32,000 nt of DNA from an uncultured Muribaculaceae bacterium (GCA_965231035.1 OZ246409.1:181101-213100), one strand, 5' to 3'. Counted from the first letter of the stretch, positions 533 to 3,794 are shown. Numbers and translations are program-made. The notes: generated by a model not told the origin, from the sequence alone.

Positions 533-2041
533 ATGAAAAAAATTATAGTAGCGTTTTTTATAATCTTTTCTGCGAATGCCTTTGCATCGACTGGTTTTGA
601 TAATTGCAAAAATAAAATTGAGACAGCTTTTTCTGTGGCATTAAATTCTTCTAAGCTGAATATTAACTCCAGCACAGTTGGCGATGATATTGCTAAAATA
701 CTGCAACCAGTATTTAATAATACATTACTAAAAGATCCAGATTGTATTGCTGCTAAAGACGAATTATTAGAGTATAAATCTGCTGACCTCAGCATTAGTA
801 TGTATGGAAGAACTATTGAGATTAGCTTAGAATTTTCTTCAACTAACGAAGAAGTTCCAGGCGGTATAAAATACACATTTCCATGGTATGGTATACTGGT
901 TGTAAAGAAGGGTTCTTTAGATAAATTTGCAAGTGCAGAAACACCTTTAATTTCCAGTGTTTATATGAAAAATAATTCAGATATATTTTTTCCAGAATCC
1001 AATAATGGTGTTTTTATGGGAATGACTTCGGGATGTACCAGTGGAAATCATATGGCAAATGACAATGATGTCATTAATCGTGCAGCACACATAACCAGGG
1101 ATGAAAATGATAGCTTCTGGAGTGGCAATGATTATTACATTTATAATGGCAAAGATGTTTATTGGGGAACTGCAACTTTGGTTGGTGAAGTTGCACTTGC
1201 GGTTCTTACTTTTGGTGTAAGCGCAGGTGTCCAAGGTGGTGCTAGTGCCGTTGCTGCTGCACCTGGTGCAGCAAAAGCAATAGAAACTGCTGTTAAAGCG
1301 GAAGAGGCCGCAAAATTGGCTTATGATGCAGCTAGCGGTGCGGAAAAAGTTGCAAAAGCTGCTGAATTGGCAAAGGCTACTAAAGCTGCAAAAATTGCGC
1401 GTGCTGAAGGTAAAATTATAATAAAAGCAACAACCGGATTACCAGAATATATGAAGGCTGGTGGAAATTCTGCACAAATAATTGGTGAACTTGGTCGTGT
1501 TGTTAGTGTTTCTAGACCCCTTACTTTTTCCGATAAGATTTGGAGATTGGCTCGCGGTGCCCAATATGCAATAAGACCTAAAGGTATTCTGACATCTGTT
1601 AAAGCAATGTCTTGGAAGAAAAAACTAACTATAGCTGCGGCGACTACGGCTGTAGGAGTTGGTGCGGCAAGTTTCGGTAAAGATCTTTTAAAAACAGTTG
1701 GTAATTATTCAGAAGCCGAACAGGAACTTGCTGACGGTGTTAAATTTAATGCTTATGGATTATTATCTGCCGATGATCTTGAAGGACGAGAAAATGAACT
1801 ATCTCATGGTTCATATATAAAATTTGATATTCCTAGCCCTGATGACGATGATGATGTACGAAATGAAGCCGAAGCTTTTGCAGAAGCTTTCAAAAGTGAT
1901 ATAGACGAAGTGAATATTAATGGATTATGTGATTTGGATATTTATGTAATTCGACCAGCTGTTGGTGAAAACCAACAAGTATATTATCTTATTTTGACAG
2001 ATTCTGGTAAACTACGTGTTGATGGCAATAATCCAAGTTAA
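533..2041 (+). CDS. Exported/membrane protein of unknown family, paralog A (signal peptide, N-domain, TM-like span, Ala/Lys-rich helical linker, conserved C-domain)
   Basis: 502-aa ORF with signal peptide MKKIIVAFFIIFSANAFA-ST and a hydrophobic span at about aa 212-234. It shares collinear sequence blocks with the next ORF. No recognisable catalytic motif. Confidence 0.85.
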   Translation: MKKIIVAFFIIFSANAFASTGFDNCKNKIETAFSVALNSSKLNINSSTVGDDIAKILQPVFNNTLLKDPDCIAAKDELLEYKSADLSISMYGRTIEISLEFSSTNEEVPGGIKYTFPWYGILVVKKGSLDKFASAETPLISSVYMKNNSDIFFPESNNGVFMGMTSGCTSGNHMANDNDVINRAAHITRDENDSFWSGNDYYIYNGKDVYWGTATLVGEVALAVLTFGVSAGVQGGASAVAAAPGAAKAIETAVKAEEAAKLAYDAASGAEKVAKAAELAKATKAAKIARAEGKIIIKATTGLPEYMKAGGNSAQIIGELGRVVSVSRPLTFSDKIWRLARGAQYAIRPKGILTSVKAMSWKKKLTIAAATTAVGVGAASFGKDLLKTVGNYSEAEQELADGVKFNAYGLLSADDLEGRENELSHGSYIKFDIPSPDDDDDVRNEAEAFAEAFKSDIDEVNINGLCDLDIYVIRPAVGENQQVYYLILTDSGKLRVDGNNPS

Positions 2042-2075
2042 AAATAAATATTATTTTAATTTCTATCAATATTTC

Positions 2076-2084
2076 TGATATAAT
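2076..2084 (+). promoter_or_regulatory. Candidate extended -10 promoter element TGATATAAT upstream of paralog B
   Basis: Exact TGnTATAAT match 25 nt upstream of the TTG start at 2109. The same 9-mer recurs upstream of two other genes in the window. No good -35 element. Confidence 0.4.
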
Positions 2085-2108
2085 TAGTCACATTAAACGA
2101 GAGAGAAT

Positions 2109-3794
2109 TTGAGGAAGTTTATAACTGCCTTTGTTTTTGCTTTGTCTTTAACCGCTGCTTTTGCGGATGATGTGGTTGATGCAAATATTGATATACAACA
2201 AAATCCAATATCCTGTGCTGGTAAAATATTTTCAGATGTACTGGCCGCAAATATCAGCGAAGTAAAAGATTCTGATCCAGAATATGTAATTCGCGGTTGG
2301 ATTTATAAAAATTTTCAAGATCCAAAAATTATTCAACAGGTATTAAATTGTCCTGAATTTGCAAACGCAGCGGATGATGAAACTATTAAACTTCCAACTG
2401 TTGTTACCAATCTGCCACTTGGTCGTCAGATTACAATAAATTATGAAACACAACCAAAAATTTTAAAACAACGGTTGTTATTAAAAAACAAAATGTCTTT
2501 ACCAGAAACCAACCCAAGTCCAAAAATTGGTGCAACTGATGATCCGGCCGTTTGGACAAACACTGAACCCGCATGGTATGGAGTTTTAGTTGTTCAACAT
2601 GGTGCCTTGGATAACTTTGTTGGAGAAAATAAAAACAACACAATTTCGTTAAAATACATAGAACAAAATATTGATAAAATTTATCCATCAAATGATAGTT
2701 GTACCAGCCGCAGCGCATTGGCCAACAAAAGCGATATTATAAATATAGCAGGACATAAAACTGTAAATTTAAAAGATGATTCCAACGATTATTATGTTGC
2801 AGGAGATATTAATTTGCACTGGGTAACCTGGGCAGAAGTCTCTTTGGATGTAGCAATAACTTTGGCAACTGTCGGTACTGGCACTGTTGTATTGGGAACA
2901 ACCAAGGCTGTGCGCGCTTCCAAGGCTGCAAAAAACACTATTGTAATAATGAAAGATTTAGAAAAAGCAGAAAAAGTCCAGGAATATATAAAATTAACCC
3001 AGAAATCTAGTAAGGTTGCCGAAGAGCTGGAAAAAATTGATAAAGCAAAAGATGCCGCTGGCTATGCTGCTAAATCAGATGAAATTGAAAATCTTGGCAA
3101 AGACATAAAAGAATTGGAAAAAATTGAAGATGTTGAAAAATACAAAGACGCCAGCAAATCATTCGAAGATGTTATGAAATTCAGACGTGAATTAAAAGCC
3201 TGGAGAATTCCTCAACGCGGAAATGTTGTTGCAAGATTGTGGAAATCTTTACGTGCTGCAAATACGGGTGGAAAAACAATTCGTACAGCCGAAAAAATTG
3301 GAAAAGCTAGTTCCTTCGCTGGGCGCACTCGTGATTTTCTTTTCAGATCAACATTAAAAAACATAGGCAGATTGGGTCGTATGCAACAAGCCAGTGGTAT
3401 ACTCTATGGTACATTAAAATTTGCAGGTGATATGTACGACTGGACAGAAACCAGCACAGGTGATTTCACCAGCAATATCCAATTCAAACCTTTGGGATTG
3501 TTATCTGCTGATGATTTGGCAGGGCAAGAAAATATCGTAAATTATGGAATGTGGTTGATGTGGGCAGGGGATTCAGTTAATCCTGCGGACGACGATGCCG
3601 CATACTTGCAGGCAATGGATTTTGCCGATAAATTCCACCAAGATTTAATAGAAATCCAAGAAGATAAAAACAGCAACGATTGTTCGGTTGATCTGTATGT
3701 TGTTCGACCAATTGTCAGAAATCCAGACACTCCGGATGCTCAACTTTATTATTTAATAATGAATGACCAGCCTTGGTCAACATCAGAAAAATAA
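2109..3794 (+). CDS. Exported/membrane protein of unknown family, paralog B (Lys/Glu-rich coiled-coil linker)
   Basis: 561-aa ORF with a TTG start preceded by GAGAGA. Signal peptide is MRKFITAFVFALSLTAAFA-DD. It shares blocks with paralog A, for example PAWYGVLVVQHGALDNF, LGLLSADDLAGQEN and DLYVVRP..LYYLIMND. Confidence 0.85.
   Translation: MRKFITAFVFALSLTAAFADDVVDANIDIQQNPISCAGKIFSDVLAANISEVKDSDPEYVIRGWIYKNFQDPKIIQQVLNCPEFANAADDETIKLPTVVTNLPLGRQITINYETQPKILKQRLLLKNKMSLPETNPSPKIGATDDPAVWTNTEPAWYGVLVVQHGALDNFVGENKNNTISLKYIEQNIDKIYPSNDSCTSRSALANKSDIINIAGHKTVNLKDDSNDYYVAGDINLHWVTWAEVSLDVAITLATVGTGTVVLGTTKAVRASKAAKNTIVIMKDLEKAEKVQEYIKLTQKSSKVAEELEKIDKAKDAAGYAAKSDEIENLGKDIKELEKIEDVEKYKDASKSFEDVMKFRRELKAWRIPQRGNVVARLWKSLRAANTGGKTIRTAEKIGKASSFAGRTRDFLFRSTLKNIGRLGRMQQASGILYGTLKFAGDMYDWTETSTGDFTSNIQFKPLGLLSADDLAGQENIVNYGMWLMWAGDSVNPADDDAAYLQAMDFADKFHQDLIEIQEDKNSNDCSVDLYVVRPIVRNPDTPDAQLYYLIMNDQPWSTSEK

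Follow-up and report, generated by a model that had tools for sequence, protein, structure and literature searches.

Several described systems resemble, each in part, the locus treated here. Two-component toxins of the ClyA/YaxAB/XaxAB type are encoded by tandem paralogous genes and combine long helices with a short hydrophobic segment, muramidases of the GH108 type can mediate the export of proteins across the cell wall, and domain II of TolA is a helical region rich in Ala, Lys and Glu. The genes of the Tol-Pal system occur in a highly conserved order (PMC7391070), and works in the reference list of that publication tie the system to septal peptidoglycan cleavage. We analysed a window of 32,000 nucleotides from an assembly filed as an uncultured Muribaculaceae bacterium (GCA_965231035.1, OZ246409.1:181101-213100), which carries two consecutive open reading frames (ORFs) between positions 533 and 3,794, termed A and B in the following. 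A first-pass annotation, made from this DNA alone, had described them as a tandem pair from an undescribed exported envelope family. The present analysis supports this description and extends it by the restriction of the family to one lineage, a conserved gene cluster, gene fusions and an adjacency to tolQRA genes in some genomes.

As tandem paralogs with long helices and a short hydrophobic segment, A and B recall bipartite toxins. They differ from the ClyA/YaxAB/XaxAB group, however, by the absence of any match in the PDB at E ≤ 0.001, by their Sec signal peptides and alpha/beta head, and by the fact that a single paralog suffices in several genomes. With the Tol-Pal system they share a probable action in the envelope and a link to peptidoglycan hydrolases, and their linker resembles domain II of TolA in composition. 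Unlike the Tol components, they combine a cleavable signal peptide with a split head instead of an N-terminal anchor with a C-terminal domain, and they show neither sequence nor Foldseek similarity to TolA, TolB, Pal or CpoB. Systems of the FtsEX-EnvC type and LytM factors are alike in the role that we propose below, namely that of a non-catalytic envelope protein with long helices which positions or controls wall hydrolases, but there is no homology, the A/B cluster encodes no ABC ATPase, and no counterpart of the split-head layout was found.

Paralogy, placement and distribution of A and B

Both ORFs lie where the first-pass annotation had placed them (Table 1). Both are listed as hypothetical: the database entry identical to A reads 'hypothetical protein PKJ33_02195 [Alphaproteobacteria bacterium]', and the NCBI label of B is 'hypothetical protein PKJ33_02200'. 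Full-length comparison of A with B by BLASTP gave E=2e-33 with 28% identity across 433 aa. When SEG filtering was applied, the N-terminal modules alone matched at E=4.6e-16 (34% over 120 aa) and the C-terminal modules alone at E=2.2e-17 (38% over 103 aa), and the linkers between them, which the annotation had called unrelated, gave no BLASTP match at E ≤ 10. Because the modules match separately under SEG filtering and the linkers do not match at all, the similarity does not originate from low-complexity sequence, and A and B are genuine divergent paralogs in tandem. The five sequence blocks quoted in the annotation are all present and collinear in the BLASTP and MAFFT alignments, and the four shared Cys residues lie exactly where it had counted them (C25, C71, C168 and C466 in A; C36, C81, C198 and C525 in B). 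Its classical signal peptides were equally evident from inspection and hydropathy, consisting of K/R residues, a hydrophobic core and AFA, which is followed by S in A and by D in B. Nearly all complete-looking relatives start with a similar signal peptide.

Neither protein could be assigned to a known family. The best Pfam matches had E-values of 0.13 (A) and 0.051 (B), both within the low-complexity linker, no NCBIfam match fell below E=0.025, and PHROGs and PADLOC yielded none. Scanning 48 relatives singly produced no consistent weak match, the commonest being DUF7144 in seven of them (best E 0.03), and sequences in the PDB were matched neither by single sequences nor by a family profile. 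The AlphaFold model of A reached a pLDDT of 65.5 overall with a pTM of 0.53 and is confident at residues 20-205 and 400-490; that of B, based on a 107-sequence alignment, reached a pLDDT of 81.6 and a pTM of 0.62. Foldseek searches with both models retrieved no PDB chain at E ≤ 0.001 and nothing from BFVD. The annotation had recognised no known domain motif and had named a confident profile or structural match as grounds for giving up its view; after the searches of libraries, PDB and models, no such match has come to light. By sequence and by Foldseek, the A/B family lies outside the known families; what is new is the family with its predicted fold, and any function is putative.

The relatives are few. 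A word-indexed search of 5.8 billion proteins returned 47 of them, and an exhaustive HMMER search with a profile, run against 1.84 billion cluster representatives, only 109. When one genome per species was scanned, 24 loci emerged, all of them in Candidatus Enterousia or related uncultured alphaproteobacterial metagenome-assembled genomes (MAGs), which represent gut or rumen Alphaproteobacteria, one being labelled 'Rickettsiales bacterium'. The closest homologs outside the window's own organism are only 43-48% identical, which marks this organism as a divergent relative of the Enterousia/Rs-D84 group, a widespread set of uncultured gut Alphaproteobacteria. Enterousia is placed in the uncultured order Rs-D84, whose genomes comprise about 0.75-1.0 Mb and lack the tricarboxylic acid cycle, respiration, flagella and standard transporters (PMC12306168). 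The contig from which the window derives measures 848,746 bp.

A set of 146 non-redundant full-length relatives contains 44 short A-type, 24 long A-type and 78 B-type proteins. Among the surveyed loci, the A-type is limited to those resembling Enterousia, and the more widespread B-type is the sole type in the most divergent genomes. A is the only paralog in loci L013 and L021, and B in L027-L030, L032, L035 and L040; the contigs of L034, L037 and L042 are too short for informative gene context. In genomes without an A-type gene, the place before B is filled by other exported proteins with no detectable homology to A, two of which (474 aa in L035 and 455 aa in L042) are mutually homologous (E=1e-114).

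Architecture and conservation of the family

Both proteins follow the same plan, with an acidic N-module behind the signal peptide, a conserved marginally hydrophobic helix (helix 1), a basic helical linker, a second conserved helix (helix 2) and an acidic C-module. The N-module of A consists of a helical subdomain with C25 and C71 and of beta hairpins including PWYGILVV, and it further contains C168-T, D179, N182, D200-Y-Y202 and W211. Conserved in its C-module are F405, GLLSxD, G426, A450, C466-x-x-D469-x-Y-V and Y485. Helix 2 follows the family pattern G-x-L-K-x-x-G-(D)-[YW]-[ST], with K387 present in 90, G390 in 131 and S or T at 393 in 142 of the 146 relatives, to which the following counts also refer.

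C25 is retained in 138 relatives, C168 in 145 and C466 in 142 (the other rows being nearly all gaps), and C71 in 113. Near-invariant in A numbering are C25, P154, C168, T169, N182, D200, Y202, W211, an acidic residue at 219, T226 and G228 in the N-terminal part, and L410, L411, D414, G426, A450, C466, D469 and Y485 in the C-terminal part. The most conserved stretch lies outside the globular modules, in the hydrophobic helix after W211 (phi-x-x-[DE]-V-x-phi-T-phi-phi-T-phi-G), where E or D occupies position 219 in 142 proteins and T226 and G228 are kept in 138 and 143, respectively. The corresponding W238, T254 and G256 of B are nearly invariant; its model shows a helix at residues 237-254, along which the pLDDT drops from 86 to 37, and a K/R-rich stretch follows.

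These patterns bear on the possibility that A and B are enzymes, such as Cys-His amidases or peptidases acting on peptidoglycan with conserved Cys, His, Asp or Ser residues. C168, D179, N182 and H186 lie within 20 residues of each other and were invariant in a first alignment of 48 sequences, and wall hydrolases are encoded by neighbouring genes. In the larger set, however, position 186 is His in 92 relatives and position 173 in 68, S412 is Ser in 133, and no hydrolase family or fold was matched. We therefore rejected both a Cys-His hydrolase of the papain, NlpC/P60 or CHAP-like kind and a Ser hydrolase, in spite of the invariant C168, and regard any catalytic function of A and B as highly improbable. 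Invariant Cys, aromatic, Gly and Asp residues without a conserved His/Ser set rather indicate a structural or binding role.

The charges are distributed in a regular manner. N- and C-modules are net acidic in 99% of the relatives, and all 146 have a net basic linker. The median net charge changes from -5 in the 20 residues before helix 1 to +3 in the 20 behind it, and from +4 in the 25 residues before helix 2 to -1 in the 15 that follow. The first-pass view of a spacer that is free to vary thus holds for the sequence, which cannot be aligned between A and B, but not for its character, as every linker is basic and lies between two conserved helices, and that of B contains four confidently modelled helices. 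The latter are 20-27 residues long (265-366; pLDDT 74-94 at 270-360) and precede a strongly basic segment. Variation in linker length may come about by gain or loss of helical units. Within the helical domain of B there is a weak internal repeat of residues 294-317 and 326-349 (window 2988-3155; IKLTQKSSKVAEELEKIDKAKDAA and IENLGKDIKELEKIEDVEKYKDAS) with z=3.8, a value reached by one of 200 shuffles; the linker of A contains no internal repeats.

The two globular modules proposed in the annotation are both conserved and match separately, as described above, but they probably form one composite domain. Since the N-module, at 37% of the chain, would not by itself account for the pTM of A, of which 49% of the residues are modelled confidently, the N- and C-modules are probably placed together. 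The pTM values of both models fit such a packing; a direct contact of the modules and a pairing of the Cys residues in disulfides are presumed.

Fusions, topology and a possible docking role

On the organism's own contig (L003), gcrA on the minus strand is followed by genes for an A24 peptidase, a protein called Next here, A, B and a small Cys-rich protein. This order, with a GH108 gene behind B where present, is conserved in a survey of 29 loci, with tiny gaps or stop/start overlaps between the genes, and after an inversion in L029 the A24 gene still adjoins Next and B still adjoins the gene for the small protein. Next carries a signal peptide and is listed at NCBI as 'hypothetical' (PKJ33_02190); phmmer detected homologs wherever a surveyed cluster locus extends to this position, either as separate proteins or fused to A. 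The cluster is kept in every surveyed member of a lineage with reduced genomes and is thus likely to be important, and none of its exported members (Next, A/B, small protein) belongs to a recognisable family, the products that can be recognised being the A24 peptidase and, in the loci that encode it, GH108.

About half of the loci encode a GH108 muramidase with a PG_binding_3 domain (PF05838, PF09374; 350-400 aa) between B and the small protein, and its start codon overlaps the stop codon of B in several cases (e.g. L006, L018). The stand-alone GH108 proteins of the cluster loci carry signal peptides and differ from the general type by an additional N-terminal module and a Pro/Thr/Gln-rich linker. 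Fusions of B with GH108 were found in P0090, which comes from two independent assemblies, and in P0121, a separate representative at 50% identity. They retain only the catalytic part of GH108, and B stands in place of the N-terminal module. Next is itself fused N-terminally to the core of A in 24 of the 146 relatives, giving proteins of 660-730 aa.

The N-terminal module of the hydrolases is about 60-90 aa long and occurs in Next, in GH108 and in two M23 peptidases (L001 2037-3080 and L024 14998-16017), as recognised by phmmer cross-matches. It follows the pattern [SG]-[FL]-L-Q-P-x-x-F-P-[TK]-T-x-x-D-x-[ST]-F ... G-Y-x-P-[YF] ... A-Y ... E-x-x-E. Within the hydrolases it comes right behind the signal peptide, ahead of the Pro/Thr/Gln-rich linker and the catalytic domain, and in Next it lies just upstream of the point at which the long forms are fused to the A core. 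A profile of the module matched the Next ORF alone in the window (E=1e-31), and the word-indexed collection of 5.8 billion proteins yielded only three short, uninformative matches. By a Rosetta-stone argument, the fusions of Next with A and of B with GH108, combined with the common module, suggest that the head of A and B is a receptor for this module.

The fusions are also relevant for the topology. Across the family, helix 1 shows Kyte-Doolittle values of 1.5-2.1, with a median simple-sum Hessa dG of +4.2 that is never below 1 (+3.6 in A). For helix 2, the best segment has a median dG of +8.3 (+12.6 in B), and both hydropathy and dG speak against a second transmembrane helix in B, for which the annotation had likewise seen no obvious candidate. 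A hairpin with both ends outside and a basic cytoplasmic loop would fit the charge pattern but is not established, helix 1 being marginal and helix 2 not hydrophobic. Helix 1 could instead act as a monotopic anchor, or the protein could be fully periplasmic with this helix buried where oligomer subunits meet. The C-terminal end very probably lies outside the cytoplasm, judging from the C-terminal GH108 fusions, the invariant Cys residues of both modules and the pTM of the A model. Together with the signal peptides of the stand-alone GH108 proteins, this strengthens the earlier suggestion that both modules may be extracytoplasmic.

A single-pass arrangement with a periplasmic N-module, one transmembrane helix and a cytoplasmic basic domain and C-module, as might be expected for sensors or anchors, would agree with the single hydrophobic helix of both proteins (Kyte-Doolittle about 1.7), with W211 at its N-terminal boundary, with the positive stretch behind it and with the lack of a convincing second transmembrane segment, especially in B. 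It would, however, put the muramidase of the C-terminal fusions into the cytoplasm, and it is at odds with the invariant Cys of the C-module, with the strongly acidic character which this module shares with the N-module, and with a pTM of the A model above the value given by the N-module alone. We consider this arrangement very unlikely.

We tentatively favour a role of A and B as an extracytoplasmic, non-catalytic scaffold which docks peptidoglycan hydrolases and acts with Next and the small protein in a lineage-specific envelope assembly, possibly linked to Tol, a reading that is plausible and still rather doubtful. The proteins would be exported through Sec with cleavage of their signal peptides and serve as paralogous subunits of an assembly, possibly heteromeric, that is specific to the Enterousia (Rs-D84) group. 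Their acidic N- and C-modules would fold together into one Cys-stabilised head without catalytic activity outside the cytoplasm, and the marginally hydrophobic helix with its buried acidic residue would keep the basic helical insert at or in the inner membrane, as a hairpin with a cytoplasmic loop or in one of the two other arrangements named above. The head would offer a docking platform for Next and the module-bearing hydrolases (GH108 muramidase, M23 peptidase), and docking would place cell-wall cleavage at a defined site of the envelope. If this is correct, the proteins represent a new solution for coordinating wall cleavage with the membranes in diderms, the more so should they substitute for TolB-Pal.

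Several observations weigh against this scaffold. Some half of the loci lack GH108, among them the window, which contains no GH108 gene and in which A and B have no GH108 domain, so that docking of hydrolases cannot be the sole role. B contains no credible second transmembrane segment. Because either paralog can stand alone, a heterodimer of A and B is not obligatory. In Enterousia, moreover, synteny extends over the entire stretch from rpsA (S1) to lpxA, which weakens arguments from gene association there.

The lifestyle of the group might point to a different function. Members of Rs-D84 are predicted to depend on other cells as obligate symbionts or parasites, and a role in cell-cell interactions has been proposed for their hypothetical membrane proteins (PMC12306168). 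A and B might be released or surface-exposed effectors that attack partner cells or serve in attachment to them, with a helix that inserts into a foreign membrane in the manner of two-component alpha-helical pore formers and a GH108 enzyme that opens either the own wall for export or that of the partner in attack. Every cluster product is exported and contains Cys, and the central helix appears too weakly hydrophobic for a confident stop-transfer anchor. On the other hand, Foldseek found no similarity to PDB chains, pore-forming toxins included, no secretion system crossing the outer membrane is encoded in the neighbourhood, and one paralog is enough in several genomes. The sharp acidic/basic division on either side of the helix is in keeping with a resident membrane-associated protein, and the tolQRA adjacency and a GcrA-type site, both described below, point to housekeeping envelope biology. 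An effector function is unlikely in our view; if true, it would provide a first molecular handle on the exploitation of other cells by Rs-D84/Enterousia. A phage lysis cassette or tape-measure protein, considered owing to GH108 and the long helices, was rejected in view of the missing PHROGs match, the signal peptides and the chromosomal housekeeping synteny (gcrA, lpxA, lpxB) in 29 loci.

Tol genes, promoter site and neighbouring genes

In the most divergent locus, L028, one strand carries ruvB, a ybgC-like thioesterase gene, tolQ, tolR, a tolA-like gene (237 aa, coding for an anchor and a charged region), Next after a gap of 78 nt, two unrelated ORFs and B. The gene for the small protein (E=2e-42) lies directly downstream of the tolA-like gene in L035, on the same strand and with a gap of 35 nt, and in L040 (E=1e-39) it follows on the same strand after one ORF of 99 aa; B and Next converge on it from the opposite strand in both loci. 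Three divergent genomes thus have either the cluster or the small protein behind ybgC-tolQ-tolR-tolA-like genes, at the usual tolB-pal position. The motor proteins gave their best NCBIfam matches with tolQ and tolR and not with exbB and exbD, although TolQ is short here (163-168 aa) and its match covers only the C-terminal half of the tolQ model. The third gene product has no Pfam or NCBIfam match to TolA and is TolA-like by position and layout only. Despite the conserved order of tol-pal genes, neither tolB nor pal follows tolA in the six tolQRA loci read, over stretches of about 20 kb around tolQ.

These arrangements would be explained if A/B, Next and the small protein constituted the periplasmic and outer half of a remodelled Tol system in place of TolB-Pal(-CpoB), driven by a TolQ-TolR-TolA-like motor, which tethers or constricts the envelope and coordinates septal cleavage, a process connected with Tol-Pal in works listed by the publication cited above (PMC7391070). 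A conserved GcrA-type site in the promoter region of the cluster would agree with such a function. The adjacency applies to three of eight informative family loci, however, and these perhaps amount to only two independent cases, as L035 and L040 share their arrangement; it could also reflect ancestral synteny, with no coupling in function. In Enterousia itself, a gene for a giant unrelated protein comes after tolQRA, and the A/B cluster is located elsewhere, beside gcrA. Neither A nor B resembles the fold of any PDB chain, those of TolB, Pal and CpoB included, and the small protein has neither an OmpA-like domain nor a lipobox Cys after its signal peptide. TolB consists of an alpha/beta domain at the N-terminus plus a beta-propeller, Pal is defined by a lipobox and an OmpA-like domain, and TolA by an N-terminal anchor, the helical domain II and a C-terminal domain III; none of A, B, Next and the small protein gave a Pfam or NCBIfam match to TolA, TolB, Pal or CpoB, and an identity with one of these components was rejected, genomic position being the sole link of the cluster to tolQRA. 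We judge the remodelled Tol system to be distinctly unlikely.

A similarly improbable elaboration supposes that the lineage Rs-D84 replaced the outer half of Tol-Pal (TolB, Pal, CpoB) by Next, A/B and the small six-Cys protein, which would recruit hydrolases via the N-terminal docking module, with the mature N-terminus of Next (...YGxIQNVQNYSSNPFW...) acting like the TolA-binding peptide of TolB. Rs-D84 would then be marked by the rebuilding of a proteobacterial machine that is otherwise near-universal. Hypothetical families confined to one lineage are common, and A/B stand out among them by their minimal genome background, by fusions that name their partners and by this possible rebuilding of Tol-Pal.

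The divergent promoter region between gcrA and the A24 gene (72-77 nt; L003 8455-8528, outside the window) has a single CGAWTCG site, conserved in position, in 27 of 28 loci, and a conserved GAAAGGCAAGGGGGAAAAAC follows the site. GANTC sites in this region number 28 in the 28 loci, compared with 5.3 expected. YGAKTCK is the extended methylation site preferred by GcrA of Caulobacter (PMC4647560); the conserved site matches it. Such a site fits an expression of gcrA, the cluster or both that is coupled to the cell cycle, and leans towards a housekeeping role in envelope or division rather than a purely partner-directed one. Positions 1-5300 of the window contain no CGAWTCG-type site, and a promoter and terminator scan of the same part returned nothing usable.

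The small protein is the most conserved member of the cluster, far above A or B, with a mean column identity of 63%, six invariant Cys and an invariant C-terminal GLR in an alignment of 15 lineages. Its gene always follows A/B or GH108, or the tolA-like gene in two divergent genomes. ATG 3868 is a likelier start than the listed GTG 3838. The protein has no match in the PDB, and no Pfam, NCBIfam, PHROGs or PADLOC match was found for it, for Next (scanned against PHROGs and PADLOC in its full-length form from L003) or for an 829-aa Cys-rich protein encoded further downstream.

Table 1. Positions of A, B, their parts and associated genes (window coordinates unless a locus is given; residues refer to the respective protein)
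Feature	Locus	Coordinates	Strand	Details
ORF A	window	533..2041	+	502 aa, ATG start; A-type family member
A signal peptide MKKIIVAFFIIFSANAFA	window	533..586	+	residues 1-18; inspection, hydropathy peak at residues 1-25
A acidic N-module	window	587..1165	+	residues 19-211; pLDDT 85-96 over most of 20-200
A conserved marginally hydrophobic helix	window	1166..1228	+	residues 212-232; E219, T226, G228; Kyte-Doolittle 1.77
A basic Ala/Lys-rich helical linker	window	1229..1648	+	residues 233-372; pLDDT <50
A second conserved helix	window	1649..1711	+	residues 373-393; weakly hydrophobic, Kyte-Doolittle 1.17
A acidic C-module	window	1712..2038	+	residues 394-502; pLDDT 80-95
ORF B	window	2109..3794	+	561 aa, TTG start with GAGAGAGAA just before; B-type member
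B signal peptide MRKFITAFVFALSLTAAFA	window	2109..2165	+	residues 1-19; inspection and hydropathy
B acidic N-module	window	2166..2816	+	residues 20-236; pLDDT mostly 88-98; blocks align with A
B conserved hydrophobic helix region	window	2817..2894	+	residues 237-262; W238, D247, T254-x-G256; Kyte-Doolittle 1.72
B basic Lys/Glu-rich helical domain	window	2895..3362	+	residues 263-418
B second conserved helix (...ASGILYGTLKFAGDMYD)	window	3363..3428	+	residues 419-440; model helix, columns homologous to those of A
B acidic C-module	window	3429..3791	+	residues 441-561; pLDDT 85-96
Next, 3' part	window	2..523	+	173 codons, open frame from base 2; full gene 326 aa at L003 9011-9991
Shared module in Next	window	143..466	+	FP-T-AD-SF ... 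GY ... AY ... E..E; lineage-specific insertion here
Small exported Cys-rich protein	window	3868..4191	+	107 aa; AGGAG 7 nt upstream of ATG 3868
Large exported Cys-rich protein	window	5209..7698	+	829 aa; Ser/Thr/Asn/Arg-rich N-terminal region, then many Cys
A24 (prepilin-type) peptidase	L003	8529-8993		154 aa; just upstream of the window; first cluster gene in 28/29 loci
Non-A proteins between Next and B	L035	7617-9041
	L042	1377-2744
	L028	7423-9200
	L030	9201-10001
tolQRA	L028	4342-6006
	L035	14093-15744
	L038	10001-12108
	L039	10001-11696
	L040	10001-11688
	L041	10001-12270

Both catalytic Asp motifs of the A24 peptidase (SDFRRRIIPD and GMGDVKL) were recognised by eye. A pilin- or Flp-like substrate, defined by a short basic leader ending in Gly and a hydrophobic segment with Glu at +5, or by the Flp motif G-x4-EY, was found neither among the cluster products nor by a motif scan of all reading frames of the window. 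A, B, Next, the small and the 829-aa protein were rejected as substrates, as their N-termini are ordinary Sec signals with AxA-type sites.

Some B-type proteins (P0103, P0100, P0081; L032 10001-13015) have a Cys-rich C-terminal extension of about 300 aa with CxxC and HC patterns, which had no Pfam match and no phmmer match to the query set, including the small and the 829-aa proteins.

Downstream of the gene for the small protein, contig L003 continues with three tRNA genes, a serine-hydrolase gene, the gene for the 829-aa protein and, on the minus strand, lpxB and lpxA. The 829-aa protein is syntenic in almost all Enterousia-like loci (phmmer E=1e-227 to 1e-301), and it may belong to the same system as A/B. 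The tRNA genes (window 4264-4574) are those for Leu(CAG), Ala(CGC) and Leu(TAA). The serine hydrolase more likely starts at window 4588 (L003 14056, 183 aa) than at the listed 4537, which overlaps the third tRNA gene. On the minus strand, a 342-aa multi-pass membrane protein without a Pfam family on record is encoded next to lpxA (window 9828-10856; L003 19296-20324), and L030 and L032 carry a Pfam-less gene of the same size at that position beside lpxA, the resemblance being one of size and position.

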